From Lepidodermella squamata (taxonomy: Eukaryota > Animalia > Gastrotricha): a DNA stretch of 64,000 nucleotides. Numbering within the stretch: the stretch's first letter is position 1; the number at the start of each line of letters is the position of its first letter. The translations under genes were made by a program, and so were the position numbers. Under the pieces are notes generated by a model, which saw only the letters and a program-made list of their open reading frames with translations, searched no databases and was not told the origin of the DNA. The stretch lies in contig JBLDXI010000010.1 of NCBI GenBank assembly GCA_047495785.1, forward strand, positions 186,001-250,000, in the 5' to 3' direction. This document shows, piece by piece, positions 28,437-62,647 of the stretch.

Positions 28437-29225
28437 AATTGATACAAATCACCCGCATTTCCAAAATCCAAACGAAATTTTTGTCGTTTTACTCCCCATG
28501 AATAAACGGGGCATGGAATCAAGCCCGGGAGTAGACGATAGGAGATTATTTTTTGTGAGCCGAATACACGTAAAATATGTGGCGATTTTACTACAACTTT
28601 GTAAAGAGGAAAAACTGAAAACTTTGAAGCTATGCCATGTGAAGATCGGACCAGCTGAACTAAAAGTGTGATAATTGCGATTTGTTTCTCAAATATTATT
28701 TATTTCCAGCAATTTCCAGACCAATGGCGAAAATTCCAGCGTTTTGGCACTTTCTATATCGCAGTCGGGCAGAACTTGGCCGGAAAAGTCAATTAGTTCC
28801 TATAAATTATTCGACAGTCATTGGCACCTCCATTTTCCCGAAAGTGTTCATTCTTTTCCTTCTTTAGGCCTCGAGATTTTGGGCGTTAATACCTCGAAAA
28901 TGCGGGAGCCTAAATGTATCAGCAAACACTTGAGTGAAACGACAGGATAGCATAACAGCGGGCTGATTTTGAGCATGACTTCCTCCATGCAGTTTCGTTA
29001 ACGTTGATCGGCTTCCTTGTCATAAATCGCATCAACACATGCAAAAATTCGACCTGTATTGCCCGCGGAAATATCGTTGAGGCTATCGTCGAAATATTTT
29101 CTTTTTAAACCTGAAATTTAAATAAAGCGTATGTGAGGGAGCATTTAAAATTCTTATTACTTATTACTTCGATCAAATTTAGAGGCCGCTTCTTCAAGGC
29201 CGCGAAGGCTTCTTCAAGGCTGGCT
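28437..29225. repeat. Diverged duplicate of ~48760-49505 (downstream of H2A); 28437-28905 inverted, 28915-29225 direct
   Basis: GATACAAATCACCCGCATTTC matches the reverse complement at ~49230-49250; GTGAAACGACAGGATAGCATAACAGCGGGC is direct in both copies. Confidence 0.85.
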
Positions 29226-29975
29226 GTGAAGAGGCACGGGTTCAAGAGCCACACAACGTCATTCATGCGTCTCCGCACAACATCTGCTTTCCTCTGCGGT
29301 TCTGGGACCGTAAATCAAGCTGCCATAAAGAGTCATGTGGCCAACTGGAACCAAGGATTCTATCCTCGAGTGTGAAAGCTGCTGGGAATTCCTGCCGAGC
29401 AGTTCCTTCGAGACCTCGGCTCCCTTCCTTCCGGTGTAGGACGCCATTCACCGGCAATCAAGAGTTGGCTACTCGGTTCGAAAGCCTGGGGACCATGTAT
29501 CGATCAGCAATAATCGGCTCATGTATAGATGACTCTTAGGCCTCATATAATATGTGATGACATGTGATCCAAGTGCTAAATGTCGTAAGGCAACTTGCGC
29601 AATAAAGCATGCCTATGAGAATGATTAATGATTAAGTCAAATTAAAATAAATTAATAAATTAGTTAATTAATTAATTAAAATATGTTCGGGGCGTAGCTG
29701 AATGAAAGCATATCAGCAACAAAATCAACATAGATGAAGATTCCAAGCGGGTGAATTTTCTTCGCTTGAGCAGTTCGACATGTCAGTCATCTTCGGCCAA
29801 ACTATGCGACCGCAATAATATTGACTGTGAATTTTCATATTTCTTTTCTTTAACCACGAAGAAATTTACTCCTTCACACCGTTGAAATAAAATCAAGTGT
29901 CGTATTGATTGCATGAACTCATGCTTTAACAACCTATAAAATGACCTTACTTGTGTCACTATTAATACTAGCTTC

Positions 29976-32355: not shown

Positions 32356-32965
32356 TTAATTTATTTTGTTTAAAAAACCTTAGACACAAATCAAATTTCG
32401 CAGATGGTAATGACCTTACTTGTGTCACTATTAATACTAGCTTCAATTTGTTTAAAAAATCTACGTCTTCGGATGGCTCGGACGGTGTGTTGCTAAAATC
32501 GCCGCGGCGATGCATGCAGGTCAAATTGAAATGAATAAACAAATCAGTAGTTTATTAATTAACGCCTAAAATATGTTAAAAACTGTAAATATTGACTGCG
32601 CGAGTATCAATTCAACGGTAAAGTCTTGCAGCTTCATTCAAAGCTGTCCAAACTACAATTTGATTGCTGCTGAGAGTTCACATCCACGCTTTTCAACTGT
32701 TACTTCTTTTGTCATTACATAGCATTACTCTTTCTCCGTGACTCAAACGTAGACTCGGCTGCTTAGCAGAGTCAGTTAGAAATGTGATTCATTGCTGAAT
32801 GCAAGGTATCGCCTGATTCGAGCAACTTGCAACCTTTAGGTGTACTGTGATTGAAATTGTCAAGAAGCTAGTAAGGTTTAGCACATTTTTTATTAGACAA
32901 GTCAGCAGTTGGGGTGTATACAAGGTGTGCTGTAGCAAATCACTTGTGGGAAGAAAAAGCGTTAA

Positions 32966-33367
32966 CCCTTAGCCGCCGAAGACGTGTACACGCGTTAATT
33001 CCGGAGAAAATTCACCGTGGTCGGAGGATTTGGGCTATTGAACCTATTGTCGCGTCATAAATTATGATAAATCAATAGCAAGAAACAAGCACTCCCCGAA
33101 AATCCAAATTTTCAAAGCCATTCCGACCAGGTCGAAAATAGTGAGAAAATTTTTAAATGACTTGTTAACACGTCATGAAAACGCGTTAACACGTCATAGC
33201 AACGGCAGCCCAGGTAAATTTCGTCTGAAAAAGAGGTTCGGCTTTCAATCTAAGGCTAAATGTAAGACTTTCTGCCGACTCGGAATTTGATTTTAGCCTC
33301 TTCTTGATTTTCTGGGATTTTCTGAAAGGTGCTCGAGTTAACACGTCATTGCGCCGGCGGCTAAGGG
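32966..33367. mobile_element. piggyBac-type MITE (402 bp)
   Basis: TTAA on both sides and perfect 13-bp TIRs CCCTTAGCCGCCG/CGGCGGCTAAGGG. Confidence 0.9.
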
Positions 33368-33714
33368 TTAAGCGTGAACAAATCCATAGTTGAATGCGCC
33401 TGCATGCAGGCAGAAAGTAAGCAGTTGATATTCGGTTTACAACAACATTTCCACAAATGCCTGCATTCTATTGAGGAATAAGCAGCTAGGGCGTGTATAA
33501 TATGGTTGACTACAGTTGACTAGATGATATGCATAGTGACAGTTAATTGGCCGTTTTCGTGAGTCACGCGGCTTGACGCTGCAATCGTAGCTGTTGCACC
33601 TTTTCGCGAAGCTAGATTCTGGCGTAGTGAACCTGAGCTCCCCTGATCTCTCCACTCTTCCGGCAAATTCCCGCCAAGCCACATTCTTTATTGCTAGCGG
33701 TGTAGAAGAACCCC

Positions 33715-34401
33715 TTGCAAGATGTCCTATTAAAACAAGCCTCCGCGCAATCCGACACTGCGGTTGCTCTGACAAAATCAAGGGGCTTACGCGTCGATGG
33801 CCCTCTGCTTCCGCCACGTGGTTCTAGTGGTACTGGCGACTCAAATCGGAGTTATGGATCCCCTCATGAACAGCAGCTCACTCGATTTCAACGAGCGCAC
33901 TACACATTGGCTAAACAGTCGGTAACGAGCTGTAAAGATCCCAACTTTGTCATTCTGCGCAGAAATCGCGACGAGAACAGCACCCTTGATCTCGAGTTCT
34001 TCGTTGGTCATGCAATCGAAATGAACAAGCTCTTCTTCACACGAAAAGGATTATATTTATCGGTTCGAGAACTGCGAATGATTTACGAGAGCATGCAGGT
34101 GGAAGGTGGATGGGTTGACAAGATAAAGCAAGAGCTGAAACAGCCGCGCGGAAAGTTTTGTAATGGACCTAAACATCTCATCGGAGGGATGATTCATGCA
34201 AGAGTTTTCCGCCCAACTGGATCACAGCGCGCCTATGTTGATATCCGCCTTTACGTGAACAATCGAAACAATCAAGCCGAACAACAAGAGCCACAAGAAA
34301 ATTCGAGTGACTTTTCGCAGGACGGATTTTGCGCATCAGATGTGGTCTTTCTGGAGCTCCAGCACATGATTTACTACATGCTGTCGAACTTGAACGAATA
34401 G
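33715..34401 (+). CDS. Tandem PC4-like ssDNA-binding/coactivator protein (Polinton accessory gene); start uncertain
   Basis: Two PC4-like segments: LDLEFF..FTRKGLYLSVRE and RAYVDIRLY..SQDGFCA. Confidence 0.55.
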   Translation: MQDVLLKQASAQSDTAVALTKSRGLRVDGPLLPPRGSSGTGDSNRSYGSPHEQQLTRFQRAHYTLAKQSVTSCKDPNFVILRRNRDENSTLDLEFFVGHAIEMNKLFFTRKGLYLSVRELRMIYESMQVEGGWVDKIKQELKQPRGKFCNGPKHLIGGMIHARVFRPTGSQRAYVDIRLYVNNRNNQAEQQEPQENSSDFSQDGFCASDVVFLELQHMIYYMLSNLNE

Positions 34402-34530: not shown

Positions 34531-35337
34531 TTACATAGTCAATGGCAGGTTCAGATTTGGTACATCATCCACTTTAACAAAGACGTTGCCGGTGCGGGTA
34601 CCGATAAAATTTCGAAATCGAAGTAACGGCGGGCATGACGCTGTGTTATCAATGAGAAGGTAACCAAATGGAACGCTTGAAGCAAGGTCGAAACTTTCTG
34701 AATCATCAAAGAAAAAGTCCAAATTAAAATGATGAGCAAAGCAAGGATCCTACCTTGCAAGAACCGCCAATCCTTGGGCATAATCTGACGTGCCAGGTGA
34801 GAAAATTGTGTCATATCGCAGGGTGAACGGAACACAATAATGTAGCGAGCGTTCAGAGTCAGGTCGCGAGAGAACTTCCCTCTAAGTAAAGAAGAACAAA
34901 ATGAGATAACAAGGAACGATTAAAGGGAGAGATAGTGAAAACCTGGGGAAGAGGTTATTTTGGGCCATGATAACACTGATCTGGCTGTGATGAGATCCTC
35001 GGTAAAACAATTCAGCAACCTGTTTCATATCTTTTGCATCGCTGTAGTTATCGTCAAATATTATTAGTTTGTGAGCCCCTCCTAAATAGTCAGCTTCATG
35101 AAATGATCCAATGTCGTCGCGAAATTCGATGGGAACGCCACGAGCAAGCAACACCTGCTGACTGAGCTCAGCATGTCCAGGTTGAGCAATTCCTCTGAAC
35201 CAAACTATTCTATCCAAAGGTTTGTCGAAAGATTCGGGATAAAGCAGAATGTCTTTAATGAGTGTCGATTTTCCACCCTGACTCGGGGCGGAAAGGATTA
35301 TAGTACAAGGTGATTGAAAAGCCGTTGTGAAGCTCAT
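34531..35337 (-). CDS. Polinton A32/FtsK-like packaging ATPase; introns 34882-34942 and 34698-34753
   Basis: Walker A APSQGGKS, Walker B LIIFDD. Splicing gives NLFPRGKFSRDLTLNARYIIVFRSPCD and FLQESFDLASSVPFGYLLID; 690-nt spliced CDS. Confidence 0.92.
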
Positions 35338-35348
35338 AGCTACTTGTT

Positions 35349-35858
35349 TTATTTTTCAAATCGCTTCTTTTTATAGTGATCTCTCACAAAGCTAAGAACA
35401 AAGGCGTCATTCTGCTGCCTAGAATTTCTGCCGTGATTAGTGATTAAGGATACAATATTAGGTAAGGAAACACCACGTGCCGACTGATGAAGGAACACCA
35501 AGCAGTATAAGCCACAGTGAATGCTGTCGTAAGCCTGAAGGCTACGGTGGTTATGTGATCGCAACTTTCGCCCACAGTTCGCCATATTACTTATGAAATG
35601 CTCGATCCTAACAGACCAGCTACTGGATTGTTGGCCGTAAGAGTCCATGAAGATGATCGATGAATCGGTAACATGAAGAGCAATCCAATGTGACCCTGCT
35701 GACGAGCTGGGCGAGGCGTTCACAATCAGGAACAGAGGCTTTTGCGACGAGCCAAGATTTTCATAATAGGCAAGCGAGTCGCAAGGAATAGTAGCGAAAA
35801 TGCCTTGGCTAATAACTGGGTCCGAGGCAAGAAAAGCGGTTAATTGATTCGTATTCAT
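35349..35858 (-). CDS. Adenain-like maturation cysteine protease (intronless)
   Basis: GSHWIAL, FMDSYG and LQAYDSIHCGLYC catalytic motifs; the ATG overlaps the MCP stop (TGATG). Confidence 0.9.
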   Translation of the reverse strand: MNTNQLTAFLASDPVISQGIFATIPCDSLAYYENLGSSQKPLFLIVNASPSSSAGSHWIALHVTDSSIIFMDSYGQQSSSWSVRIEHFISNMANCGRKLRSHNHRSLQAYDSIHCGLYCLVFLHQSARGVSLPNIVSLITNHGRNSRQQNDAFVLSFVRDHYKKKRFEK

Positions 35859-37185
35859 CAGAAAAAGTTGTGAATGACAGTGCGGTTCGACTGGAGCTCC
35901 ATCACCCGGTGTTTATACTGCATTACGGCAATAAGAGTTGCCGGGTTCGGCAGCTTTTTGCCGAAAACTAGGTTAATTGCCATCTGACCCGTGGTAATAA
36001 GGCGGCCATTCGGGTCGTTGTCCAGTGACAGCTGAAATGCGAGCACTGTGCCACCACCTTTAACAAAATCGCCCCTACTAATATTGACGCATTTCGAATT
36101 CGAATCGGGGAAAATGGTGTCTTGCATTAGTTGATAAGCCCTAGCGCAATCTAAAGTACCAAAGTTCATGGCCAATGGAGTGCCACCCACAGCTTTCCCA
36201 TCAATTGTTATCGTTATATTTTGAAGGTCAAAATGTTGAAAGTTGAAAGGGTTGGCTGTAGCCGCTCCCTGAAGAGCTGAATCCTCGACCATAACTAAAT
36301 TTGGAATGATTTAAATTAAACATGAATTCCGAGCCGAAAACTTACCTAAAATGAGCTTTTCCGGAATCACACCCATGACTACATTGTTGAGATGGATTGA
36401 TGTCATGTTAGTGGGCAAATTGAAAGGTTTGGCCAGGGTATGGTTGAAAATGTACTTTGCAGGGGTTTCAACTAGTGCTCTCTCCAGAGCCATCGTTACC
36501 TCAGGAACAACTTCGACACGTTTCACCAACAAAACAGCTTCCAGTAGTTTGAACTCGTAATCTTTCAGATCATCAGACATCAAGAAAAAATCCGGTTTAT
36601 GCATAGTTAACTTGATTCGAACACTCGTTTGGGGGATCAAATATTTCTCCTGATTGAAGAAGTCCGTTTGAATTTTCCCGCATAACGAGATAACGGGGTT
36701 CTTTTCTATATCATTGACAAGGCTTAGTCGCTGCACGAAGCCGGAATTAGGTGCCTTCAACTGGTCGAAAGATCCGAATGAGTCTGGATGCCACGCAACG
36801 TTACTCAACTTGGCATTTTGCACATCTTCCGAGGCCGAAAGTAAATGCTCAATGTACGCAGAAATCGGATGTAACGAGGTGTTTTGCGTTATCAGATTCT
36901 CATTCACGTAAACGTGGCAATCGGAAAACATTGAATTTAAAAAATTGTTAACAGGCGCACAACAAAAGTTGTTCTTTGTCATGCCGGCAGCAGTTGAAGT
37001 GATTGAGGCTTTGATGGAAAGGTAAGTATGACTGAGGTCGGTGCGGGGATCGTAAAGGTGATTTGTTGCGCGCCCGAAATGGATGCCATGGGATGGCACT
37101 CCGTGGTGTGAGTACCAGTGACCTCATTGGTGACAGGCGGGGAAGCGAAAATAGCCAACTCTGCCCTAATTGCGTGATCAGACAT
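35858..37185 (-). pseudogene. Double jelly-roll major capsid protein; intron 36295-36345; frameshift at ~37045
   Basis: AELAIFASPP, TDLSHTYL, PVNNFLNSMFS, DFFNQEKYLIP and spliced KLILVMVEDSALQG..NPFNFQHFD. Confidence 0.88.
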
Positions 37186-37240
37186 TGTAAATTCTCGGAA
37201 TAATGTTTTATTAATAATTCATCGCCTTATATATATCAAA

Positions 37241-37654
37241 TCAGAACAGAATGCGCGTAGATTTAGCTGGCCTTTTCCCACGCTTAAATTTTCGTTTGCC
37301 GGAACCGTACTGACGAGCTAGGTGACTGATTGCATCCTTTCCTACTGTTTTTAGGCCTTCCATACCTCGATTCTTGAAAACTTCCGCCATGTTATATTCA
37401 GTTCCAGCTTGCTGCCGCTCAGAAATATCCGAAGCAATGTTTGTCGCTGTTGAAGCAGCTGAAGTGAAAAGTTTAGGCAGAAAAGGTATTAAAGTGTGAC
37501 GAATAAAGCTGCGGATATATGTTCCCAGTCCATTTCCAACTTGAGGCATCAATACGATGGATGGTCCACTAAACGGTTGTATACCGCTTCCGCCTCGTCC
37601 AGTTTGGCTAATGAACCAGTTGTAGTAGGCATCGGAAGAAATGGGTGCTCGCAT
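37241..37654 (-). CDS. Putative Polinton core/membrane-active precursor protein with adenain-type cleavage sites
   Basis: QTGRG, QVGNG and QYGSG sites; amphipathic GLGTYIRSFIRHTLIPFL; basic C-terminus. Confidence 0.65.
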   Translation of the reverse strand: MRAPISSDAYYNWFISQTGRGGSGIQPFSGPSIVLMPQVGNGLGTYIRSFIRHTLIPFLPKLFTSAASTATNIASDISERQQAGTEYNMAEVFKNRGMEGLKTVGKDAISHLARQYGSGKRKFKRGKRPAKSTRILF

Positions 37655-37657
37655 TGC

Positions 37658-38780
37658 TTAGCGACGAATGGGCCGAATATGGATGGTGACAAGAGATTTG
37701 CCTTCCTTATATACAACTTTCTGTCCCGAGTCTAGGCACATCAAAATTGAAATAGTATCCACAAATTGAGTGCGAACAGGGTGATAAAACGGCATTGAGC
37801 CAGCAAAACTGGTCATGCTGTATTTTGTGGCGGAAGCTGAACCCGAAGCTGGAAATACGCGGAGTAATGGTACAAATTTGTCACCACATATTGTGTGTTC
37901 AATCAAATCGCTATAGCAATAAACCAAAGGGCTGTGAAAATGGATCTGTGGCTTGAACTCGGAAAAAATCGGAATCTCATCGTACGTCGGGCGGTAATTT
38001 ACTGCAGCTACCAACTCTGATTCACCACTTTCATTTTTCCGATGCATGTTTAGTCTCAACTTGCCATCGTCACAGTCCTGGTAAGTCGGAATCTTACCGT
38101 GGGCCATTGGCATCTTTGAGCCTTCCTTCCCCGGCAAAATAAATCGCAACATGTGACTAAACAGCGATAAAAACTCGCGCTCATGGCGTATAGAGTCTTC
38201 CAACTCAAGATCCTCGTCATGTGGCGGAATATTCAGCAAAAGAGTCCCACGCTCAAACCCTAGTATTTGAGCAATAAACTCGGGTAAATAGAGACCACAG
38301 CCAGGTTTTAAGTTGAATCTAATACGACTCCTTGATTCCTCATGACTCAAAGTCATGCCGCTCCAATCGGGGAATTCCGCTGTCATATGATTCAGAAAGT
38401 CGTCCATGGTTTCGTAAATTCTGCCGCCAACAGTACATTGCGAAAATTCTTCCGGTGTGTCAAACGGTGAATCATTCAAATTCCCACGCTCGAACCATGA
38501 CGTTTTGAACAAATAGAAATGAGATTTCTTAATGGAAATCACTTGAGAAGGTGTGCAGACTTCCAAAAGCGCCGCTTCATGGCTCCCTATGCATCCCAAA
38601 TCTATGAAAATCGAAACATGGTAAGAACAAAATAATAATATTTGAATCCGCCATACCGATAATTTCCGGGAGCTTGACTTTAAATTCTGCCGCATTATTG
38701 TTGCTAAAAAGATCCATTGACGCGTGAGAAGGAAGTGTCAAAATGAGATCTTTGCCGTAATAATTATTTGCTGGAAGCAT
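37658..38780 (-). CDS. Minor capsid (penton) protein; intron 38602-38656
   Basis: LTLPSHASMDLFSNNNAAEFKVKLPEII|DLG..HEAALLEV; C-terminal YCYSDLIEHTICGD..PLLR and VTIHIR; 1068-nt spliced CDS. Confidence 0.88.
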
Positions 38781-38985
38781 TCGTGGTTGTCGATTGATAG
38801 ATTAGCGGATAAAAAAACCACGTCAATATCAGCAAAATTAAGGTAAGGGTAACAGTCGTAATTTGTTTCGTTCGTTTAGACAAGGAACTGGCAAAGCTTG
38901 GGGATGGTTGCAGCGGCGCAGGCAAAATTAGTGGTCTCTGAATGTGAGACAGGTCAGGAGACGAAAGTGAGTGCATTTTCCCCAA
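38764..38985 (-). CDS. Possible small membrane protein between integrase and penton
   Basis: One hydrophobic segment; fills the intergenic gap; no recognised homology. Confidence 0.25.
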   Translation of the reverse strand: MGKMHSLSSPDLSHIQRPLILPAPLQPSPSFASSLSKRTKQITTVTLTLILLILTWFFYPLIYQSTTTNASSK

Positions 38986-39003
38986 CCTGATTTACTATCC
39001 TTT

Positions 39004-40051
39004 TTATATTCTTTGAAGCTCGAAATTATAGAACACACGATTCAACTGTTTTCCTTGCCCCTCCGGTTTCACTCGATAGGCAACAGTCGAATTTCCATTT
39101 TGAGGAATAACTTTTGATACGAGATAGATTTTCTCAGAAAAAGTAGGGTTCTTCACACGATTCTTGAAAGTTGAACGTTTCTCCATAATACGAACGCGAT
39201 CACCGACCTTGAATTGAACCCGAACTGATCGAATATTCGAGAATATAGTTTCAAAGGCCAGGAAATTATCAAAATGCTCATCATAAACAGTCATTAGTCC
39301 GGGCTCTGAAAGTTCCATGTTCAGTTTGGGAGATGCGCCCAAAGATTATTCGGACTCATTTGAGTAGTTGAATTTGGACAAGAGTTGATTGAGTGAAGAA
39401 AATCACCCAATTTATCGATAAATTTCTTGGTATTGTTCGCCATCAGGTAACGAACAATCCGCATGCGAATATTGCGGATAAAAGTTTCGATTGAGCCGAC
39501 CTTTTCGTTGACTCGGTTAGGTAAAAATGCGAATGCAATTCGTTTTCAATGTAGTTTCGAACTCGCTTGTCCTTGAATTCTGACCCTTTGTCAGTAATGA
39601 ACTGATGTGGAACTAAGCCAACGTCTACCATTATCTCCTTCAATGCAGATAGAACCACCGCCCCAGTTTTATTACGAAGAACTTTTAGCCAACATTTGCG
39701 TGTGTATAAATCTTTTACACATAAGATGTATTTTTGACGCCTATTGTTAAATTGGTACTCCTTGGTAATTTCCAGCAAATCAGCAGCAAAGCAGGAACCC
39801 TTGGAGTAAACAGCCACTCGGCGGAAAAGCTTTCTATTTCGCGTTGAAGCTTGTTTAAACCGAGAATAAGCCGGTTGTTTAGAGAGCCATTCTCTGACTG
39901 ACTTGTACGTGATCAAAGGATTATTTGGATATTTTGAAACTGCAGCATCATATAAAATTTTTATAGAACGGAAACTGCTAGGAAGCTCAGGCGAGTAGTA
40001 CAATGGGTGTAGAATATCATCAAGCTCAACAATTTCGACATCGGAAGTCAT
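39004..40051 (-). pseudogene. Retroviral-like (rve) Polinton integrase; frameshift at ~39510; probable intron 39306-39355; no chromodomain
   Basis: LYYSP..SF, FAADL (D), ITDKGSEF (D), KVGSIETFIRNIR (E, in the shifted frame), spliced TQMKPGLMT, FKVGDRVRI, FYNFELQ. Confidence 0.88.
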
Positions 40052-40073
40052 TATCACAAGTAAAAATGAATTT

Positions 40074-43000
40074 TTATTGTTTATAACCGAATGGGATGGT
40101 TTCAAAGGTTGCAAAGTTCGAGATTACTCGTTTTTGAAATTTGAAACTAAGTGTTTTTATAGTATTTTCAATGGCAACTTTTGCATACGGCTTGCAGTGG
40201 AATCGGCGCCAGACTTGTTGTTCAAGCTCTAGTCGTGTCTTCTCACCACCGCAGTTGACAGATTTCAGGATGTTCATAAAGCTTTGGAAATTCGTACGCT
40301 TTTTGAGCGCGGAAGTCAATTGAAATCCTTTCATCCTGATGCATGTGTTGCCCTGGGATGTTTCGTACATGTAGGTTTTTGGGGCGAGTCCGATAAACCT
40401 GAAATATTATTCCATGAAAAGCTGTTCAATTATAAAAACAAAAAAAATTGACTCACTTGGTAATATGTTCATTTGCATTTAATTCCGGTTTCCATTCCCC
40501 AAGAAAATTGCCAACATGCAACGGCTGAGGTCCTCCAGGTCGCTCGACGTAAATGCAGGAGTCTGCGAAGATATGGTGAGATTTAGCGTCAGCAGATCCT
40601 ACCCTGAGCTTCACCTGAGTTTCAGCTAACCTACCCTGAGCTTCCCCTGAGCCTCAGCTAATCTACCCTGAGCTTCCCCTGAGCCTCAGCTACCCTAACC
40701 TGAGCTTCCCCCTGAGCCTCAGCTACCTTAACCTACCTTAACATGAATCCTAATGATAGGATTCATAAAACCGAATCACTTCGCACTGGTTCAGATCCAA
40801 TGCTAGGCGAAGTTCTGTTGTGGTAACGAAGATTCGGTAGCATCGCTCGTCATCGGAGTGAGTACACTCGGCCTGATGATTCATCTCCATACAGGATCTA
40901 CAGTTGCCTACGATATAATTGTTTAATTTTCGTGAGATTTGAGATAAAAATTTATTACTTACCGAACTTCAGGTACCCTTGAGAGGTGCGATATGCCAAT
41001 AATGGGATGAAAACATCTCTTCGCGGCAAGATCAACACGTGCGTTAACCCGAAAGTCGGTGTAATTGTTGAGTAGAAATGAGCGCGAAGTTCCAAGTGGT
41101 TATTTCGCAGTTTCAAAACGTCCTCATTGACCGGTCCATAAGGTAAGAATACGTCATAGTAACCATCCTCTTGAGATCCGATCTTGCCACTCAAAATTGC
41201 TGGGTAGAGGCTTTTTAAGGTCATATTTACACACGAGTTTTTTTTTTTAAATTATCATTAATTTAACCTATTTACGTCGAGATACTTGATCTTCTGGTCG
41301 GGTGACGAGGAAACGTCGTAAAACAGGCAAAAACTTTCGGTGCGGCCACCCATGAAACTATCACGTGGTAACGCCCTAGAATTCTCAGAATAAGAGACAT
41401 TTTAAAAATTACACCTTAATTCTTACCTGTCAACAATGTCCAGGGTGCGTTCAATCTCCCCGGTCAGTACCGCATCGTCGCTCATGGCTTTCTTGGCTTC
41501 GCACGCCCAAATGCTGGTCAGATTGTATCCTGCAGCGCGAATTGCACCATCGCGTTCTTCTGTATCCTTGAATAAGAACCCAAATGATACTTTCCGGACA
41601 GGATGAATTTTATTGGCCGCTTCAGGAAAGCACCTGGTAAAAATTCAGAAATGTTTTGATTTTAGCTTGTAAGTGTTTTTTGACATACTTCATGCAGCCA
41701 TGGCAAAAACAGCCGTGGTACATGTACACCTCGAGAATCTTGTTGTTTGCGTCGTAAACAACCCCGTCAGGGTGGAATCTTCGGAACTTGGAATTCTCAG
41801 GGAGTTTTATACACAACTCCCCATTTGAGTTGGCTGCATGTTGAATGCGTTTCCCGGTTTTTCGAGCCACGAACTCGAAGTAAACAATAGATTCCCGCGA
41901 GTAATTCGCCCTAAAAATTCCCATGACTTACATTTTATTTGTTTTTCAACTTCAGGATTAATTCATACCCCTTCGCGTAGCCAGTGTTTGGAACAAGGTG
42001 AATAGGTGTCGCAGGATCCAGGTAGAGGAAGCGCCAAATGAAATTCGAAAGAGATGCCAGGGTTCGAACCTCTGAAAGTTATACGAATGAAAATAAAGAT
42101 CCAGGCTGATTTTATAATCATACCCCATATAGCGTCGATGCCTTCCGGACACTTGTCGTCTCGGGTTGTGAATTCTCGCAACACCGATCGGAACTTGATT
42201 ACAGCTCTATGCAGCAAATTTACATCGGACTGGCAGTAATTAATCAGCTGATTACGAAGGTGGAACTTTTGATGCTGATTTTCAGCTAAGAATTGTTGCA
42301 ACTCAGCGAGTTTTGAATCCGAAAGCCGGTTTGTGTCATAGTCATCCAAGGTTGGGAAGTCTCGCTCGTTATCGGAAAGGAAATTCGCTGATGTCAGCAA
42401 TTTATAGGGAAAAAATTCCTTTCCAGTTGCATTCGCATCCTCATCCAGACCGAAGCAGTGGAAAAGCGAAGCCAACGATGACATGGAGAGGAGGTAAAAG
42501 TCTCGAAATACGATTGCTTTTTTCTCAACAGATAGCTCGATAATTGTGTTATTTTTGTAAATATGATCGAACTGATAATCGTGCTGTTGTAACCATTTCA
42601 GGACCATAAAATTATCGAATCTATAGCGAGATTAAATTAAATTTTCGAAATCTAACTCTTCGATTTTCCCACCTTGAACCATTATGAGAGAGAAGTAAAA
42701 TTCCAGAATACTTTTCTCGCAGCAAAAATTTCATAAACTGGTTTACACAGGTGGAATCCGCACCAGTTGAAACGAAGATCTGCTGGCGCGGGTCGTCACC
42801 AGTACACGATTTGGGACACGTTGCGGTGACAAGCATGTGTTGACACGAGTCACAAAACATGTTCAACACTATCACGACTGGCACTAGTTCTCCGGTTTCC
42901 AACTGAATTGTTTCGGTATCCCAAGCTCCGGCAATTCGCAGAGGATCTTTGCGAAGCCTGCCTGGTTGAATGACACAGCTGTGTTCCTCGTCACCCTCCT

Positions 43001-43810
43001 CCGAGCTTATTGGCCCGTTACAAGTTCGACACGTCCGAGATTGACCTATAGTCACATTGTAGCAAAAATTAAGGTGGATTTTTTCACATTTCATCAACTC
43101 ACAGTTATGTTTTCCCTTTTGCGCTATCCCAATTTTCCTACCGCACTTGCCGCACATGAAGTAGGACTGGCAAATGGTCGCAGCTCCGAGTGTTTCAGGT
43201 GTCTGGTGATTCATGAACATAGATATAGTTCAGTAGAGATCGCCCACTCGCGTGAAAAAGGGTGTACGCCATGGGCGCCAGATGGTTAGCTGATTCATCA
43301 GAGGCTTGGAGGCCAAGTAAACAAAATATTCGATTCGTTTTTTGTCGGTTCCGATCGAAATTTCTCAATTTCTCAATTTTCGTTGATGGTTCCAGATAGG
43401 TGACATTACAAGGAACATGCTGGTTATTTTTTCATGATTTTTAACTAAATATGGACCACCAAAATCAAAGAAAAATGATTTTGCGATTGGAAATAAAATG
43501 AATTATCACCAGTAGCGGAATCGAAATTGAAGCAGTTTTTTAGTGGTCCGTGTAGCACAGATCGAGCTCTACAATGTGATACTTGGAGCGGACTTGGATG
43601 AATTTTTATCAATTTCTCTACCAAACCTTCGAATTGCGAATTAATTTTCGATAAAAGTTCCAGTATTTCCAAGCCGCTTTCATCATCCTCATCGGCGTCG
43701 TCTTCAAATCCAAACCCTATCTGATCTGAAGGATCGATCGCTTGCGAGGAATATTTGAAAACGTCCATCTTGAATCGCGGAGAATAGCAGAAAAACCCGT
43801 GAAAATCCAT
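40074..43810 (-). pseudogene. Protein-primed family B DNA polymerase with 9 complete introns; motif B region deleted; 5' end degraded and uncertain
   Basis: Spliced motifs WDTET, HNGSR|FD, YCQSDV, TLASLS, HGCMK|CF, PRDSFMGGRT, YLDVNS|LYP, F|GNCRSC, |DSCIY, GNFLGEW, K|FIGLAPKTY, MKGF, TIPFGY. Confidence 0.92.
40598..40742. repeat. ~33-bp tandem repeat with telomere-like subunits at the pPolB deletion
   Basis: About 4 units of CTACCCTGAGCTTCCCCTGAGCCTCAGCTAA, then CCTTAACCTACCTTAAC; adjacent hairpin at 40743-40766. Confidence 0.85.
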
Positions 43811-45465: not shown

Positions 45466-45921
45466 TTATTTCTCATATAGTATCGCATATAATATAGTTT
45501 CAAGCTGCGTCAGAGGTGTAGTTAAATCTTTAATGCCAGTCACTATTATCCACCCCGACGAAAATACATTCACGCATGTTGAACCATTGGTCAAATTTTT
45601 ACACCGCAGTGCCGGAAATCTAGTATTATCATATATCACTCGCGCACAGAGTTTGGCAACACGAGCTATTAAGGCCTCAGTTATGTTTATTCCAGTTGGC
45701 ATCTTTCCCGCAAGAGTACTGTTTACCAGGCGAATCTTAGATACCTTTATGGCAGTGTTGTCTTGTCGCTGTAGTTTCCTTGCCAGTTTTCGCCCATAAA
45801 TTTTTGCCAGTTCAGGATTCTTCGTAAAAAGCACTACTTTCCCGTTTTTAAATAGCAAAGCGTTGAAGTGCGGCTCTTTAATGACGAGAGCATTTGGAAA
45901 CTTTTGTTTAAGCTCAACCAT
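45466..45921 (-). CDS. Divergent TATA-binding-protein-like protein inside the Polinton; true start may be upstream
   Basis: Two TBP-like repeats: KFPNALVIKEPHFNALLFKNGKVV and VNSTL..INI..YDNTRFPALR..VNVFSSGWIIVTGIK. Confidence 0.75.
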   Translation of the reverse strand: MVELKQKFPNALVIKEPHFNALLFKNGKVVLFTKNPELAKIYGRKLARKLQRQDNTAIKVSKIRLVNSTLAGKMPTGINITEALIARVAKLCARVIYDNTRFPALRCKNLTNGSTCVNVFSSGWIIVTGIKDLTTPLTQLETILYAILYEK

Positions 45922-46528
45922 TTTGAAGAGGTGAATAATGCCGGCAAATTGAAATTGAATATAAATTAGCCTTGATTTTGTCTTGTATGTATCTTATATT
46001 TTTATAAAGCTATCCAGCTTGTCAACAATTGCTGTTGCCTAAAAAATTGTTGTTACATCACTACTACACTATCTGCACTCGTAAAAAGCAATTTTTGTTA
46101 TCATTTGCCAATGTCCTATTCATCTGTAAACTGTCCTGCAATTACATGTTTCACTTTCAAAGTACCTCTTGTCAAGCTGCCCTCTTCTGGGCGTTAAAGC
46201 TTATAAATAAATAAATAAATTCCGGAGATCAAATTGTACCCCCAGCGAGAGTGTGGAAACAACATTTTGCACGGTAACATCAATTTCAAGCATTTAATAT
46301 TCCAAGAAAAATGAGAAAATGAGTTGACATGACGAATTTACTTGCTTTTTATTACATTCTACCTGTTAACGACTTCTCTGCATATACATTGTATAAATGG
46401 TGCCGAGATGCAACGCTCAGTTTTTAAAAATAATTTTTTGGCGAAATCTTACAAAATTTATATCAACTGTACAATACCTTGTCATATTCTTACGCATCAT
46501 TTTACTTGGCAACTTTACTTATCCTGAA

Positions 46529-46760: not shown

Positions 46761-47467
46761 TCCTCCTGTGGAGGAGGAAAATGCCAACTGGTGACCTGTA
46801 TATAAAAAAAAATAATCAACATTATTACAATATTATTAAACATTATATTAACCTTTGTATTTCGAAATCGCTATCGAAATCTAATCGAAGTAAATGTAAA
46901 GATTGCACTCCATGGCTTTTCTCAATCCAAGGATACAAATAGAAAATGCAGTCGAGTTTCACTAACTGTTTTATGCTGAAATGTCTTTCATTACCAGAGC
47001 GGAATCTACACATATGACGAAAAGGTTGAGTCCGCATTTATTATCATAGCAAGTTGCCGTTATCTCAAGCTGACATTTTAAGAATATTCGCAGCTGACCG
47101 TTGGCGAGACATAAAACGTGACAATTCCAGAGGGTACTTTCACTCTTGCAAGATGACTCATGCATTGGTTACTTTTGCGTCACATGCCCATTACATTTTA
47201 GAAGTTTGAATTTATGTATGCCGGAAGAGTCAAGGTCATATTTTGGTATTTTGGCGCTGAAATAATGGTTGGCGGGAAAGTTTCAATTTTCCTTTTCAAA
47301 AACTAGCGAGTGACCGTAGAAATTTAAAAAATTCAAATTTTGACTAGGGTTTCGGCGGGAATATCGTGTCTCGGAATTATTTTGACGCTAATATTTTCCG
47401 TCAAGGTCAAATTTTTGCCGGGAAAATTTCAAAATATTTTTCCGTTAGGAAAATCAATCGATATCGA

Positions 47468-47931
47468 TTAGGGTTAGTGTTAATGATTATGGTTAAACCC
47501 TAGGGTTAGTGTTAAGGATTAGGGTTAAGCCCTAGGAATAGTGTTAAGGATTAGGGTTAGGGTTACGCCTATTTTGGCGGGAAATTAATTCAAAATCAAT
47601 CAATATCGGTTGATCGATATCGGTTATCGGCTAGGGTTAGGGATTATCGATTAGGGTTAGGGTTAAGGATTAGGGTTAAGCCCTAGGGTTAGTGTTAAGG
47701 ATTAGGGTTAAGCCCTAGGAATAGTGTTAAGGATTAGGGTTAGGGTTACGCCTATTTTGGCGGGAAATTAATTCAAAATCAATCAATATCGGTTGATTGA
47801 TATCGGTTATCGGCTAGGGTTAGGGATTATCGATTAGGGTTAGGGTTAAGGATTAGGGTTAAGCCCTAGGGTTAGGGTTAAGCCCTAGGACTAGGGTTAG
47901 GGTTAAGGAATCCAGTTAGGGTTAGGGTTAG
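47468..47931 (+). repeat. Degenerate TTAGGG telomere-like array with a 183-bp internal duplication, in the Polinton terminal region
   Basis: Many TTAGGG/TTAAGG/TTAGTG units; 47498-47680 repeated from 47681; CCCTAGGG palindromes. Confidence 0.9.
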
Positions 47932-48262: not shown

Positions 48263-48742
48263 TCGGGGCGTAGCTGAATGAAAGCATATCAGCAACAAAA
48301 TCAACATAGATGAAGATTCCAAGCGGGTGAATTTTCTTCGCTTGAGCAGTTCGACATGTCAGTCATCTTCGGCCAAACTATGCGACCGCAATAATATTGA
48401 CTGTGAATTTTCATATTTCTTTTCTTTAACCACGAAGAAATTTACTCCTTCACACCGTTGAAATAAAATCAAGTGTCGTATTGATTGCATAAACTCATGC
48501 TTTAACAACCTATAAAATGACCTTACTTGTGTCACTATTAATACTAGCTTCAATTTGTTTAAAAAATCTACGTCTTCGGATGGCTCGGACGGTGTGTTGC
48601 TAAAATCGCCGCGGCGATGCATGCAGGTCAAATTGAAATGAATAAACAAATCAGTAGTTTATTAATTAACGCCTAAAATATGTTAAAAACTGTAAATATT
48701 GACTGCGCGAGTATCAATTCAACGGTAAAGTCTTGCAGCTTC
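48263..48742 (+). repeat. Right, uninterrupted copy of the 480-bp direct repeat
   Basis: Matches 29687-29975 plus 32445-32635. Confidence 0.95.
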
Positions 48743-49556
48743 CTGCAGTAAGTTCCTGGATTTTCGAGGTATTTAACGCCCGCAATCTCGAGGCCTAAAG
48801 AAGTAAAAGAATGAACACTTTCGGGAAAATTAAGGTGCTAATGACTGTCGAAAATTTTTTTAGAAAAAATGTTGTTGATGTTATTGAATTTTCGAAGATC
48901 AAGTGGCTTTTCCGGACAAGTTCTGCCCGACATAGAAAGTGCCAAAAAACGCTGGCATTATCGCCATTTGCTGGAAATTGCTGGAAACAAATAATAATTG
49001 AGAAACAAATCGCAATTATCACATTTTAGCTCAGCTGGTCCGATCTTCGCATAGCAAAGCTAAATTTTCAGTTTATCAGTTTTACGTGGATTCGGCTCGT
49101 CAAATAATCTCCTTTCGTCTACTCCATGGCTTGATTCCATGCTCCATTTATCCTGGAGTAATAGTACATGTCTATTCCTCCAAGCCATTTATGGGGAGTA
49201 AAACGAAAAAAATTTAATGTGGATTTCGAAATGCGGGTGATTTGTATCAATGTATCAGCAAAACACTTCAGTGAAACGACAGGATAGCATAACAGCGGGC
49301 CGATTTTGATCATGGCTTCCTCCATCAGAAAAATGCGGTTTCGTTAACGTTGACCGACTTGTATTGCCCGCTGGGAAATATTTCGCTGATTCATTTTTCT
49401 TTTGAATCCTGAAATTTCAATAAAGCGGACGAAGAGGGAGCAATTAAAATTCTTATTACTTCGACATCATTTAGACTTTATTTAGAATGGCGGCTTCTTC
49501 AAGGTTTATTATTTTTGTTCACTGAGATAATTTTCAACACTGTTGCAACAACTTGT

Positions 49557-56194: not shown

Positions 56195-59100
56195 TCAGCC
56201 CAGTTCGGACCGCGATCGATCTGATAATTGGTAACGAGGTGAATCGCCATCGTCGTCCGAATCATCGCTGGTGGCGGCACTGCCATCCTCCGAATCATCA
56301 TCGTCATCCTCTTCCTCCTCCTCAGAAACTTCCTCTTCATCATCTTCCTCAACTTCTTCATCCGACCCAACCGGCTCATAGCTCTAGAAATAAAATAAAT
56401 ATTAAATAAATTGATAAAAAAATATACAAAAATCTGGTATTTGGATGTTTACCTCGTCTTCTGAAGATTCTCCAGGAACCATTTCACCGAATGAACTGTC
56501 GCCCTGCATCAAACTGCTCGCATTTCCGAAAAGAACAGGCGAGCCAACTTCGCTGCTGCCCGCTAGACCACTCGCCCCCAGAACAGGCGGTGGGGATGCG
56601 AGACCGCCTCGACTTCTCGACTCGTGGTCAACGCCTCGTGAAGATCCTGAGCCGATTCTAGGGACTGGCGGGGCAGCGTGACGCCTGCGGCGGTGGCGAT
56701 GTGAGCCGGAGTGGTGGTGAGACGAATCGGACGAGTCGTCTTCGCTCATTGAAGATTCGGAGCCGAGCATCGACGAGTCATCATCATCGCCAGAATCGGA
56801 CGAATCGTCGTCGTCATCATCGTCATCATCATCACCACGCTCATCTTCATGGTCACTCTCGCCGAGACCTGGTAAAAGAAAAGTGGAAAAGAAAAATAAT
56901 TAGCTTCAAATTTTCAAAATAATTAAAACTCCAATTTATTAAGGTGGAATATTTATTTTTTCTACAGTGACTGGATTCTTTTATAGTCATTAAGATGATA
57001 TCGCTTTACCACCAAACCTTACGACTAAATAGTGAGAAAATCCTGGTTTAGAGTTACACCGGACCACAGTTCTCAGGCTTGTCAAAAGGTTTGAAAATCA
57101 CGGGAAAGTTGATGATTCACCGCGAAGCGGCCGCCCGAAAGGTGAGCGCGTTCGACGTTACTACACCTTGAACCCAATGTCCACCACATACCAGCGTTCC
57201 ATTTCATTGCGCCTTAACACGGCTTCAATTTTACGCATTTTGCGAACACGCCTCAAATTCCATCCCTATAAGATGTACATCACGCAGCAGCTGAAGTCAT
57301 TTGATTTTGCTAGTCGACGAACATTTTGTACCTCGATGGCATTCTTGGAGATCGAATTGTTGGTCCCATTATTTTCGAGGGGAATGTGGACGGTGCTGAG
57401 TACCTCAGGAAGCTCAAGGAGGAAATTATGCCCCTAGTACCCGCGTGCCAACAGCGTTACCGCTCATTTTGAACGAGGTTAAAAACTCGGAAAATCCCAA
57501 GTTTCACAAATTGTAGTTATTTCAGGTTTCCCTTGCAGATGCTTTGAATTTTTGACAATTTAGAACGCCCAACTTAAAGAAATTTTTGGCGCTCGTTTGC
57601 GTATTTAATGGCCTCATGAGTTTCAATATTCGACCTTGAAATGGTATTCGAAGTCTCTGAAAATCAATTTTCGCATGAATCACCTGAGTCCAATCTCAAA
57701 CCAAAAATGATAGCACCTACTGAGAATTTCAAGCTAAAAACCCAGATTTCAAACGATCAACCGCGAAAGAGATATTATCAAATGCAAAGCAAGGTTACCC
57801 ACCGCCGCTTTTTTACAATTTTTATGGTGGACAATTTATTTTCTCAGTTTAGCTCAGTTTATTAGAGTTATCTCGGTTAAAAGTCTTAATTAAAATAGGA
57901 TACCTCCCACCATCTTTTAGAAAATAATTCGATAAAAACATACCATCAGCGTTGTCTGGAGGATGAGCCAGACCAACCGCGTAGAGTCTCGAGCAAGAAT
58001 CACCCCCACCATCATTAGTAGCCGTCATATCGTTGTCAACCAGTGCAACGGTGTGATCATCGGGATGAACCGCCAAATCGAAGATATTCCGCTTAACATC
58101 AACACTCGCAATTGGCGTGTAGTCATCGGCATGGAAAGTTCGGAACATCGAACCAAACGGACTCTTCGACCCGGAACCAGGGTGGTTGGCCGATGCGAAG
58201 AAGTCAGGGTCTGAACGCAAAACAGCACCATATAGCACCTCGCCAGTTCCGCTGAACACAATTGAGCACTGGTTCAGATCGGGAACGGTTCGTAACAACC
58301 GGTACGTCCTCAAGTCCCAAACCTCGCAGTTAATAATAACCTCAAGCCCGGACGGGTGGAAAACGCCGGAAACATCCGCGTTCAACTTGTCGAATTTATG
58401 AATGTGTTTTTTCGATTTCACGTCCCAAAGGAGACCGTCAGATAAAACCAGTTTATCACCCGGGTCGAGATGGGCTCGGTTATACGTGTAGCCGCTAGAC
58501 CGTTCCTGGTCGTACAGGGTCATAACCAAACTACCGGTTGTAACATCGTAAAGATGAGCAATCGATTCCTGAGTTCCAATAATCAGAGGGGCGCTTGATG
58601 AGGTCAAAGAGCCATGCCCGAATTCAACGTAGTTATCGTCATTTAAGGAGGCTTTTTGGTCGGGTTGTGAGTCTCGCTCTAAAATTCCGCTTTGAGGCAC
58701 CCGCATCGACCATAACGCTGACAACGGATGGCCCCAGGTTGATGACGTCACGAATAGCTGAGTGTTAGTAAACCACGGCGCGAATTCGATGTGGGTCAAC
58801 GGGCTAGGGTGGCACGTGAATACGCCCGCCTCAGTCCCGGAGTCAGAGTCGAAAATCAAAATATCGCCCGTATCAGTTCCGATGGCCAGCCCGTTCCAGA
58901 CCGTGGGCAAAAAGCTGCAACAAGTGAATTGTAAACCCTCGGCATGTCGAATCGTTCGAATCGGCTGGAAACGGCTGAATACAAACTGCCGGTTCAGCCT
59001 TCGACCTTGCGGGCCGCCCCACCTAGTTACCACGTGACTCATATTGGCGCGACGGGGTAGCGACTGCGGGGCGCAAGTTGCTGTAGCGAGGGGCACTGGG

Positions 59101-62100
59101 CACTTGTGAGGGGTTAGCAGCGAAAAAGTCGGGCAAATCGACATAGGAACTGGGCAACTGGAGTGCTGCTGCCTTAAATAAGCAGCTACGATATCGTCAA
59201 GGGTCGAAGCTAGGGCTTCGTTATTTTCATGAAAACTCCGCGATGAACCCATCAGATTCTCACTCTGCGAGGCTAATTCCGCCCTCTTCAGGAAGGACGG
59301 CTGACGAGGCGCCGGGGAGTGGCGGACATTGATCGGTAATTTCACCCCGGGTGGGGGTGGGTTGGCCTTTTTGACCGGGGCGGTCGCGCCGAGTAAACTT
59401 TGCCGCAGCAGCAAATTATTCGACCGGCTGATTTTCGGAATTTTCGCCGCTAAATTGGTCTTTTTAGCGGGTAATGTGTCCAACATTTCCGTCAAGCTCG
59501 GCATCATCGAACTCCGAACTGGTAAATTTTGCATATTACCCTCAGTCAATAGCTGTTTCATCATATCTTCCATGCCGTTAACTTTCAGGAACGAGTACAT
59601 CAGCATTACTAACTCACGTTTATCGTAACGATACGACGTTCTAGCAACAATTTCTGTCCGTCGAATTTGTTCCCGCATTTCTTCCTCAGTAGGTAGACGC
59701 ATCCCGGAGACGCGTTCGGCTAATTCAGAGGCGTAACGGCAGAACCGGGTGTGTTCCTGCAATTTATCCTGAAGAACCGGCTCTTTAACCAGGGCCTGTA
59801 ATTGGCCGTGGTCGAACAGGGATAAACGGGATAAAATTTGGCGAATTGTGTCAGATTGAGCTAGGCCTAACAAAACCCGGCAGGCGTGCATTCGAATCGC
59901 ATCTGCCTCGGTCACCGGGGTTTTCGTGAACAACAAATCTCTCAATCTCATGATACCATCATTCATCTGAATGCACTCAAACACAGTTGATGGGCTATTT
60001 TCAGTCGGACTTTTATGCTTATCCTCACCGCCATCAGCCGGGTCGAAGGGCGACGGCGGCCGTGACCACTTAGATTTCGACGCAAGTTGCGATAACGGGG
60101 TATTTGGCGCGTTCGCCGGCCGGTTGAATACCATGTTGGTAGACGGGGTCGACATAACAACAGGCGGCGGCCGCATCGACGATGGCGAGTTCGATTTCGC
60201 GTGCTCAGGATTCGCCGAAACGCAGAGGACCGTCAAAAAACTTAAGGCGGATTTAACAACAGACGCATCGCCCGCTCGTTCGGAATGAGTAGCTTCAAGT
60301 GCGACAATCACCCCGGAAGTCTTATCAGGGCAACGAGGGCACTCTAAGCCGTGGCACATCGATGTAGAAACCTGGCGTTCGATGCAGCAAGCGGCTAAGG
60401 AGTCGAAAATTGCGACTAAGGTTTCAGTGCGGCCTGTATACGATTCTTGCCCGACCAACATATGAGCCAATCTCACCAGTAATTCAGGCCCGTTCAACCC
60501 CGAAAATTTCTGAATCGGCAACCACTGGATTCGCTTCGGCAATTTCTGCCCAGTTTCGTTTTGAGCGGCTATCGCGTCGAGGCAAATGTCAAGATCTGCA
60601 TGGCGCTGTTCGGGCGATGCCTGGACAACCGCGACTGACGAGTGAACGGAGGGTGCTGGCAACGTCTGCGGGCCAATCGATGAAGCAGTGGGTGATAGTG
60701 ACCCAATAGGCGGTGCGAAACTAGTCGTAGGGGTGGTTGTTGAGGTGATTAGAGGCAACGCGCCGTTTTGCGACGGTTTCGCTGCGATTGCGGTGGCTCG
60801 AAGGTGGAGATGCGTGTCGAAATAGGCTTTCATAGCCAGGGCCGGGTAACGAGCGGCCTGGCAAGCTGCTATCACTTCATCAGACTCTTTTTCCTCACTT
60901 TCTTCATCCTCATCTTCATCGCTTATATCACTATCGTCCCCTTCGCTATCACTCATTTCAGCCTCGTCGTCCATATTAACGACTATCGGTTCCCAGTCGT
61001 CGTTAGCCGGTATTACAGGGCCTGGGTCGGCTTGAGCGGCCGGTGCATTTGCCTGTGCCTGGTTCGCCGGCTGGTTTTGCTGCCTTTGTCTCGCTCCATT
61101 TATCAGATCCGACAAATTCATCGAACCGTCCTCCAGAAAACTCGGCATGCTCTGGTCAGTTCGATTAGCTATTTCGTCCGGGTTTGTGTGGAAAATTGCG
61201 AGGGTCGACAGGGAGTTGTAAAGGTAACTAATGCCATTGCACGAGTCGAAAACCTCCAGAATTTGATTGTAAGGTAACATAGCTGCCAGGAATAAAGCCG
61301 CGTGATTTCGGCTTGACACGTAACCAGACTGAACCAAACCCAAGGCGTACTCCATCAATTGGAGCAAAACTGGCCGGGTTAACGAGCTACACATTCTATT
61401 CGCGGTGTGTTCGAAATACGAAAGGTAATACAGACAAAGTGCGACGCCAGCAGCTGGTAACGTTGTCCTTGGCACAGAGCTCAATAATCGAGAAACTGAT
61501 GATTGCTGTTGAATGAATTCAGACGCTAGTTTTCGATGGCAAAGTAGACTGGCTAAAAGGCAGAGAGCTTCGAACGTTAATCTAGCATCCCCGACGTATC
61601 TCATATCAAGATAGTAGTCAACCAGCGACATCACATTTGACTTCTGCATTACCGGAAGCAAGTCCTGGTATTGAGCCACCGGGGCCAAAAACTGGAGGTA
61701 CAAGCGCTGACGAACGTTGGGAGTGACTGGATACAACGAATTATCGCCGATAATCAAAGCAACGTCGGATAGCATGGAGCTGATTTCGTCTGCCGGGTTT
61801 TGAGGTGGAGAAACCGCACCGTTTCCGTTTTCCATGCGACGCTGCTTCGCCGATGGTTCGTCGCCATTAGACACCGGAGCTGGCCGTTTCTGGCCAATAG
61901 AAGCCGGATCGGCTTCCTTTTTCGCATTGATAATTTGCCAAATCTCCTCTAGAACCACTCCAGCCTTTTAAAACAACGACGAGGTAACAAATCAAATAAT
62001 TACAAAATTGAAAACTAACAATTCTTTGATTATGTTCTTTAAAATTGACACTTAGCTCAGCTTGCATAGCGCTACCAAGTATGCCAATGCTATACGCCCG

Positions 62101-62647
62101 AAGATCGCTATCGCGCGGTTGTTTTTCAGCCCATTCATAAAGCCGTTCGACGACTTCCTCGTTGTCGCGGAAGAATACAGACGATTCCACGCCCGGTAAA
62201 AGGCTGAGCAATAGCCGCGTTGCCATTACTTGCACAGGACCCGGGTCGCCCCTCGCAGTGCAGTAATCATCCACCATCTATATATGTTTTGATTTACGAT
62301 AGGAAGTGAACTAACAATATACTTACGCGTTGAATCAACCCATCTTCTTTAAATATTCTTTTCAGAATTGAGCCGTACTGACACTCAGGCTTGACCTTAG
62401 CTACAAAAGCACGATATAATTACGATACGAAGTCCAAGTATCATAATAACTCACATGGATGGCGATCGTCGAACGGATCGGGATTGTGTTTCCAAAAGAG
62501 GATACCTTCCTGTTCAACTATTTCAGTCAGACTCGTCAAGAAAGGGAGAGGATCGTGCCCTGCTCGAGAGATATCCGCATCCCATTGCTCGAGCAAGTCC
62601 GAAACAAGCTGGGATGCGTTTCCAGCTCTTCCGGAACGCTCAGGCAT
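56195..62647 (-). CDS. DCAF1: DCAF1/VprBP CRL4 substrate receptor; exons approx. 62647-62455, 62400-62327, 62277-62021, 61964-57943, 56868-56453, 56383-56195
   Basis: PDPFDDRHP, KTPVTEADAIR, EPVLQDK..EH, LisH-like segment, FSRFQPIRT, HKFDKLN..GVFHPSGLEVIIN.EVWDLRT, acidic tail. Confidence 0.93.
57040..57440 (+). pseudogene. Tc1/mariner transposase relic in a DCAF1 intron
   Basis: RLVKRFENHGKVDDSPRSGRPK, ILRTRLKFHPYKMYITQQL and a frameshifted GP.YFEGNVDGAEY segment. Confidence 0.7.

Follow-up and report, generated by a model that had tools for sequence, protein, structure and literature searches.

Can the core genes of a Polinton be split by spliceosomal introns, and if so, were these introns acquired by the element or by the copy that it left behind? 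This question is raised by a stretch of 64,000 nucleotides from the gastrotrich Lepidodermella squamata (contig JBLDXI010000010.1 of assembly GCA_047495785.1, positions 186,001 to 250,000), which we call the window. An earlier note, made from the letters of the window alone, had described in it a Polinton/adintovirus-like virus whose core genes are interrupted by about 15 host-sized introns, gained while the lineage was active. What appears to be new here, and is well supported at the sequence level, is a Polinton whose genes for replication and for the virion are both split by likely introns, in a copy that is broken.

The element, a defective integrated copy of a Polinton/Maverick of the adintovirus type, runs from 43217 to 34551 on the minus strand. 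In this direction its genes are pPolB, the rve integrase, the penton, an open reading frame (ORF) of 138 amino acids, the major capsid protein (MCP), the adenain protease and the packaging ATPase; apart from the small ORF, all of them bear out the proposed identity. Pfam identifies the polymerase (PF03175), the integrase (PF00665) and the protease (PF00770). The block of integrase, penton, small ORF, MCP and protease also occurs in two related loci, L039 and L092, with the ATPase next in L092, and a third (L042) has the same block without a listed small ORF.

Within these genes, 14 segments are candidate introns (Table 1). All of them start with GT and end with AG on the minus strand and measure 50-61 nt, in full agreement with the coordinates, ends and sizes first given for them, and their A+T content is 71% compared with 56% in the exons. 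As had also been claimed, all but one are disruptive if retained: 13 of the 14 shift the frame or bring in a stop, the exception being the first pPolB segment. Seven lie in phase 1, seven in phase 2 and none in phase 0 (P ~0.003 under even phases). Along the pPolB chain the phases are consistent, and exons 1-9 contain no stop; the median pPolB exon is 207 nt long.

Removal of the segments restores a protein colinear with uninterrupted homologues, exactly so at nine of the 14 junctions, with moderate support at three and weak support at two. For this comparison, exons were translated one by one with an X placed at each junction and aligned to profiles, which for pPolB comprised 58 homologues of 850-1800 amino acids (out of 152 proteins) and for the other genes smaller sets from the fetched loci (15 sequences for the ATPase, 5 for the MCP, 8 for the penton and 10 for the integrase). 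Profile columns continue unbroken at all eight pPolB junctions between 43102 and 40908 as well as at the ninth pPolB and the MCP junctions, and short insertions appear just downstream of the penton, integrase and 34882-34942 ATPase junctions. In addition, we scored every frame-compatible removal of up to ~110 nt near each site in a blind scan that did not require GT-AG. The best length was the proposed one at nine junctions: 42621, 42072, 41911, 41634, 41211 and 40908 (six of the eight pPolB junctions between 43102 and 40908), 40399, that of the MCP and ATPase 34698. By chance, a GT..AG of a set length would turn up no more than 6 nt from a randomly chosen site in ~3% of cases.

Three further junctions are moderately supported. 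For the penton, 55 nt ranks second behind 58; for ATPase 34882, 61 nt ranks third; and for pPolB 41376, lengths of 48, 45 and 51 are close to tied, with a second GT-AG of equal length and equal score 8 nt upstream. The first pPolB and the integrase introns are doubtful. At 43046-43102, retention scores no worse than removal (45.7 vs 44.8). In the integrase, the best length is 56, the scan rank is 195/1837, A+T is 0.54 and the donor, already remarked on as weak in the earlier note, fits the consensus at one of six positions. Two contigs of sequencing run X1 terminate within this segment, and it may be a frameshift rather than an intron. X1 contains 94% of the sampled words of the window, which may itself derive from this run, and X1 is not taken as independent support. 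The number of likely introns is 12-14.

Except in the integrase segment, an extended GT-AG donor and a pyrimidine-rich acceptor are present. Donors score on average 3.7 of 6, compared with 1.7 over all 418 GT of the element (reached in 0 of 200,000 resamples), and 13 of the 14 segments have a pyrimidine at –3 (background 43%); this test of donor, acceptor and A+T leans favourable because the sites had been picked by their signals. A blind count of donor-acceptor pairs in the element shows strong pairs clustering at 46-61 nt, with 7 found and 1.3 expected (1 of 100 simulations). Judged by these features, the 12-14 short GT-AG segments are likely to be major-spliceosome (U2-type) introns.

Table 1. 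Genes, candidate introns and other features of the element (window coordinates).
Feature	Coordinates	Strand	Remarks
pPolB remnant	40077..43217	-	9 listed introns and an orphan acceptor; PF03175 E 4e-13 on one exon
rve integrase	39004..40048	-	three frames; PF00665 E 3e-8, above cut-off
Penton (minor capsid)	37658..38800	-	language-model (Atlas) features 0.96-0.97; homologues in fetched loci
138-amino-acid ORF	37241..37657	-	between penton and MCP; similar-sized ORF there in L039, L092
MCP	35858..37218	-	tblastn E 2e-37 vs L039 ORF
Adenain-type cysteine protease	35349..35912	-	uninterrupted; PF00770 E 7e-6
Packaging ATPase	34551..35355	-	homologues match A32 and IVa2 families
231-amino-acid frame	33706..34401	+	convergent with ATPase; possible element gene; Atlas <=0.83, a lead only
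pPolB intron 1	43046..43102	-	57 nt, phase 1; in frame, no stop; weak
pPolB intron 2	42621..42672	-	52 nt, phase 2; within Exo II motif; strong
pPolB intron 3	42072..42123	-	52 nt, phase 1; strong
pPolB intron 4	41911..41968	-	58 nt, phase 2; strong
pPolB intron 5	41634..41688	-	55 nt, phase 2; strong
pPolB intron 6	41376..41426	-	51 nt, phase 2; profile support moderate; good donor, internal stop
pPolB intron 7	41211..41267	-	57 nt, phase 2; within motif A; strong
pPolB intron 8	40908..40962	-	55 nt, phase 1; strong, rank 1/606
pPolB intron 9	40399..40456	-	58 nt, phase 2; strong, rank 1/549
pPolB gap	40563..40752		tandem array and 3' end of a further intron; ~166 columns missing
Integrase segment	39306..39355	-	50 nt, phase 1; doubtful intron
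Penton intron	38602..38656	-	55 nt, phase 1; moderate
MCP intron	36295..36345	-	51 nt, phase 1; strong, rank 1/1467
ATPase intron	34882..34942	-	61 nt, phase 2; moderate
ATPase intron	34698..34753	-	56 nt, phase 1; strong

The copy in the window cannot be autonomous, a point absent from the earlier note. The pPolB profile covers columns 383-981 and 1148-1283 in the window. Columns 982-1147 (~166 columns with motif B and most of motif C) were found nowhere in the window by profile, and columns 1-382 were not detected there either, in a poorly conserved region where short exons could escape detection; PMC11161782 places terminal protein and vOTU domains at pPolB's N-terminus. At 40563, where an orphan acceptor had been proposed, there is indeed a T/C-rich end in CAG, and the profile picks up at this very point with column 1148. 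Since the missing columns lie beside it, we regard this acceptor as the remnant of a further intron. Other breaks are not introns: the integrase frame is broken between the ORFs 39446-40123 and 39324-39545, and in the 5′ part of the MCP, as at one of the integrase breaks, there is too little room for an intron. No inverted repeat that would link the flanks of the gene block as terminal inverted repeats was found in the window. X1 contigs differ in letters from the window in the element genes, possibly owing to allele or assembly differences.

At 40598-40725 and 47462-47931 there are tandem arrays, both of 32-bp period and both containing TAGGGT-like words. The second looks like degenerate telomeric repeats, and a separate low-depth X1 contig also places the first beside pPolB exon 9. 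A very high-copy repeat (43250-43400), with a summed depth of up to ~19,000 vs 162, begins ~40 nt upstream of where pPolB exons are first detected.

We compared the element with its relatives. Among 113 related loci, pPolB forms a single ORF in 82 and is split in 31, nearly always by a simple stop or frameshift and with next to no excess bases; an intron series like that of the window element occurs in none of the 113. A candidate intron near pPolB column 446 in the metagenomic Polintons L036, L073 and L098 (75-81 excess bases) was rejected for want of consistent splice sites. Run X1, which may be the window's source, also contains a 2764-nt contig that matches the exons of the ATPase, the protease and the MCP at ~79% identity and has a depth of 418 vs 162 for the window copy, that is 2.6-fold. 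The listed substitutions between the two, 29 in number, fall on third (19), first (8) and second (2) codon positions (P 0.0004), and from the third-position excess we conclude that both lines were under coding constraint after their split. The span between anchors in the capsid and protease genes is 695-702 nt in three intron-free relatives, 757 nt in the window (706 nt minus the intron) and 775 nt in the 79% contig. This relative is longer by ~70 bases over the stretch with the capsid intron, the simplest reading being that it has an intron there too. In a second, low-depth X1 contig, the alignment extends as far as the acceptor of ATPase intron 34882, and similarity is lost over the intron itself, which is a weak hint only. 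Together, this suggests introns that are older than this insertion and common to a related family.

The introns resemble each other no more than by chance (best of 91 pairs, p 0.015), and neither terminal repeats of introns nor further intron copies were found in the window. Lacking both mutual similarity and terminal repeats, they should be old or singly arisen rather than products of a recent introner burst, and an introner origin was rejected for the window, where no multicopy, similar, repeat-flanked introns were found.

We now turn to how such introns could have come about. On present sequence evidence, it is quite probable that they were gained, likely singly, in a then-replicating Polinton lineage, so that the intact element would need splicing. 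Small insertions with usable splice signals would have been tolerated and then fixed one by one in the replicating lineage, as drift in an element tied to the nucleus. Having no gene for an RNA polymerase, and integrating in the nucleus, Polintons give rise to transcripts that are exposed to the spliceosome. An intact element would depend on nuclear host splicing for its polymerase, ATPase and capsid proteins, and introns once fixed would be hard to shed: with clean loss rare and retention breaking the frame in 13 of 14 cases, the process would act as a ratchet.

Several points weigh against this reading. The homologues used are only about 30% identical (best 35%), and the pPolB profile derives from matches to one exon of the window gene itself. 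Two of the 14 introns are doubtful and three moderate. The substitution tally covers the 29 listed differences, with 68 further rows outside it, and the putative shared capsid intron was read from a single length. Finally, as the copy is broken and terminal inverted repeats were looked for in vain, the activity of an intron-bearing element is presumed. The proposal that the introns were gained in an active lineage receives indirect support from the 79% relative and from the mutual unlikeness of the introns.

Among the alternatives, introner-type host transposons could have put the introns into a dead provirus after integration, as in dinoflagellate elements. There, the majority of introners in viral elements appear to have arrived in this way (PMC11957031), and the present copy is likewise defective. 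We consider this improbable here, given that the introns of the element are unlike one another in sequence, lack common terminal repeats and are not copied elsewhere in the window, that all listed introns are sense-oriented in coding DNA as opposed to ~25% of viral introners (PMC12166617), that the exons remain open, and that the 79% relative is also longer across the capsid-intron interval. Domestication by the host, with introns gained while these were host genes, seems to us about equally improbable. It would fit the single-copy depth (~160) over most of the element and the constraint on the exons, but would leave unexplained why the full viral gene set is retained in viral order, why the catalytic core of pPolB is deleted, why a related family exists at higher depth, and why neighbouring host exons are long (1.0-4.1 kb). 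Least of all do we expect the segments to be insertions or frameshift debris of a decayed pseudogene, matched afterwards to chance GT/AG, a reading that is plausible for the integrase and first pPolB segments and has a precedent in the false Genewise "introns" of decayed vertebrate Mavericks (PMC8097293) but conflicts with the narrow 50-61 nt range, the nine exact length fits, the strong signals, the stop-free exons and the near-zero excess bases at the breaks of decayed relatives.

To these alternatives we prefer the gain of introns by a replicating Polinton lineage. The window's host genes include a rhodopsin-type G-protein-coupled receptor, a SOCS-box gene and UDP-glycosyltransferases, besides frames that, from their translations, we take to be histone H2A/H2B, cathepsin-like and DCAF1-like. 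Five hand-picked host intron candidates are 54-69 nt long (four of the five in phase 1) and weakly support the description of the element's introns as host-sized; a blind donor-acceptor count in the host DNA of the window gave no excess of short introns (5 vs 5.1 expected). Neighbouring host frames remain unbroken for 1.0-4.1 kb, compared with the median pPolB exon of 207 nt, and this higher intron density of the element argues against mimicry of host gene structure. Mimicry of host genes or control of expression, as suggested in the earlier note, is without support, and introns as an adaptation of either kind are not favoured. The presumed DCAF1-like gene (57849-62454, minus strand) is intron-poor, with one 4.1-kb exon and two candidate introns of 54-55 nt.

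The element's surroundings are rich in repeats. A ~480-bp direct repeat of ~100% identity (29687-29975 plus 32409-32635, and 48263-48742) encloses 15.6 kb with the entire Polinton block; a non-LTR retroelement showing a 36-nt duplication splits its left copy. Outside it lies an older pair of 70-72% identity (28438-29199 and 48754-49504), part inverted and part direct. At 32960-33372 there is a high-copy short insertion with TTAA-flanked ends, presumably piggyBac-like, and one contig joins across it. Upstream of pPolB by 2.3 kb, at 45466-45993 on the minus strand, we found a frame without interruptions, TBP-like but divergent (PF00352, E 8.5e-12), covered by a contig of ~2x the depth of the element core. 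It is possibly cargo of the element, and a pattern scan of viral contigs gave no relative of it.

For pPolB, we obtained 308 matches at E<=0.001; the closest are ~30-35% identical, and the named ones among those looked up are nematode and crinoid proteins. In a FastTree phylogeny (128 of 146 sequences after the gap filter), the polymerase adjoins Logan protein P0033 with support 0.98; its deeper position is not resolved in this tree, and we therefore claim neither a donor nor a clade. The source name of P0027 and PMC10748475 hint that pPolB exons 5-6 might contain an inserted VSR-like nuclease; Pfam did not confirm it, and the idea was dropped. The capsid gene is indirectly assigned as a putative homologue of double jelly-roll MCPs: a model of the L039 capsid ORF (pLDDT 67) matches those of iridovirus, PBCV-1, mavirus and Sputnik, and the window's own MCP exon folds poorly (pLDDT 41). 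The Atlas features of the penton include one cluster set in which 26% of the members carry PF21507. Sequence searches with the 138-amino-acid ORF gave no match. A word-index protein search returned one match for the MCP exon and none for the ATPase and the integrase, pattern scans of viral and metagenome contigs with the window's own exons revealed no close relative, and a sequence search of the PDB gave no match.

How does this element compare with known systems? It has the same core gene set as animal Polintons/Mavericks (PMC8097293, PMC8502044, PMC10748475, 10.1101/2022.07.12.499685) and a gene order common to its metagenomic relatives. Unlike the described Polintons, it has four, possibly five, split core genes, and no terminal repeats were found. 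The view that Polinton core genes are usually uninterrupted agrees with the published accounts: intact vertebrate Mavericks have no introns (PMC8097293), and in the Maverick of the nematode C. plicata the core genes are intronless and cargo genes have introns (10.1101/2022.07.12.499685). Endogenous virophages have no introns (PMC8547959) and cryptophyte elements only group I introns (PMC12220804). The accessible parts of PMC10748475, PMC8502044, PMC11296320, 10.1101/809541, PMC11161782 and two preprints of 2026 contain no relevant passage, and we found no published description of spliceosomal introns in core genes of animal Polintons in a search that left out Repbase, Dfam, most subscription papers and supplements.

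Two systems come closer. Dinoflagellate polinton-like elements (PMC11957031, PMC12166617) share with the window element the presence of intron-like inserts in polinton-type proviruses. Their introners form multicopy families, are mostly younger than integration and lie to ~75% in non-coding DNA, whereas the introns of the window element are unique in sequence and lie inside core genes. Mirusviruses (PMC12768974) resemble it in that their genes for virion morphogenesis contain short spliceosomal introns of the GT-AG type, which have been taken to indicate replication in the nucleus and to form a ratchet or "evolutionary trap". They differ in belonging to another viral realm, in their giant genomes and protist hosts, and in that some of their introns encode homing endonucleases; the word "Polinton" is absent from the main text of that study.

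The exon lengths also have a practical consequence. In the largest survey of endogenous polinton-like viruses, genes were predicted with a caller made for prokaryotes, the reason given being that these viruses "do not contain introns" (PMC10120064). With a median pPolB exon of 207 nt, the element is invisible to intron-free gene calling, as the earlier note had anticipated for ORF-based virus searches, and the diversity and host range of Polintons may therefore be undercounted. As intron-free relatives give the ancestral state for each site, the element also lends itself to a compact study of how introns are gained. A wider reading is possible, and we put it forward tentatively, as falling somewhat short of probable: the window element may represent a spliceosome-dependent lineage of animal polintoviruses, active via related families, whose replication and virion genes are intron-split, more densely than neighbouring host genes and without phase 0 introns, and which would be locked to the nucleus as one of a widespread, overlooked intron-rich class. 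The element would also take the "intron ratchet" from mirusviruses into animal hosts and a second viral realm, and, if its capsid genes have introns, its late genes too would have to be processed by the host spliceosome.

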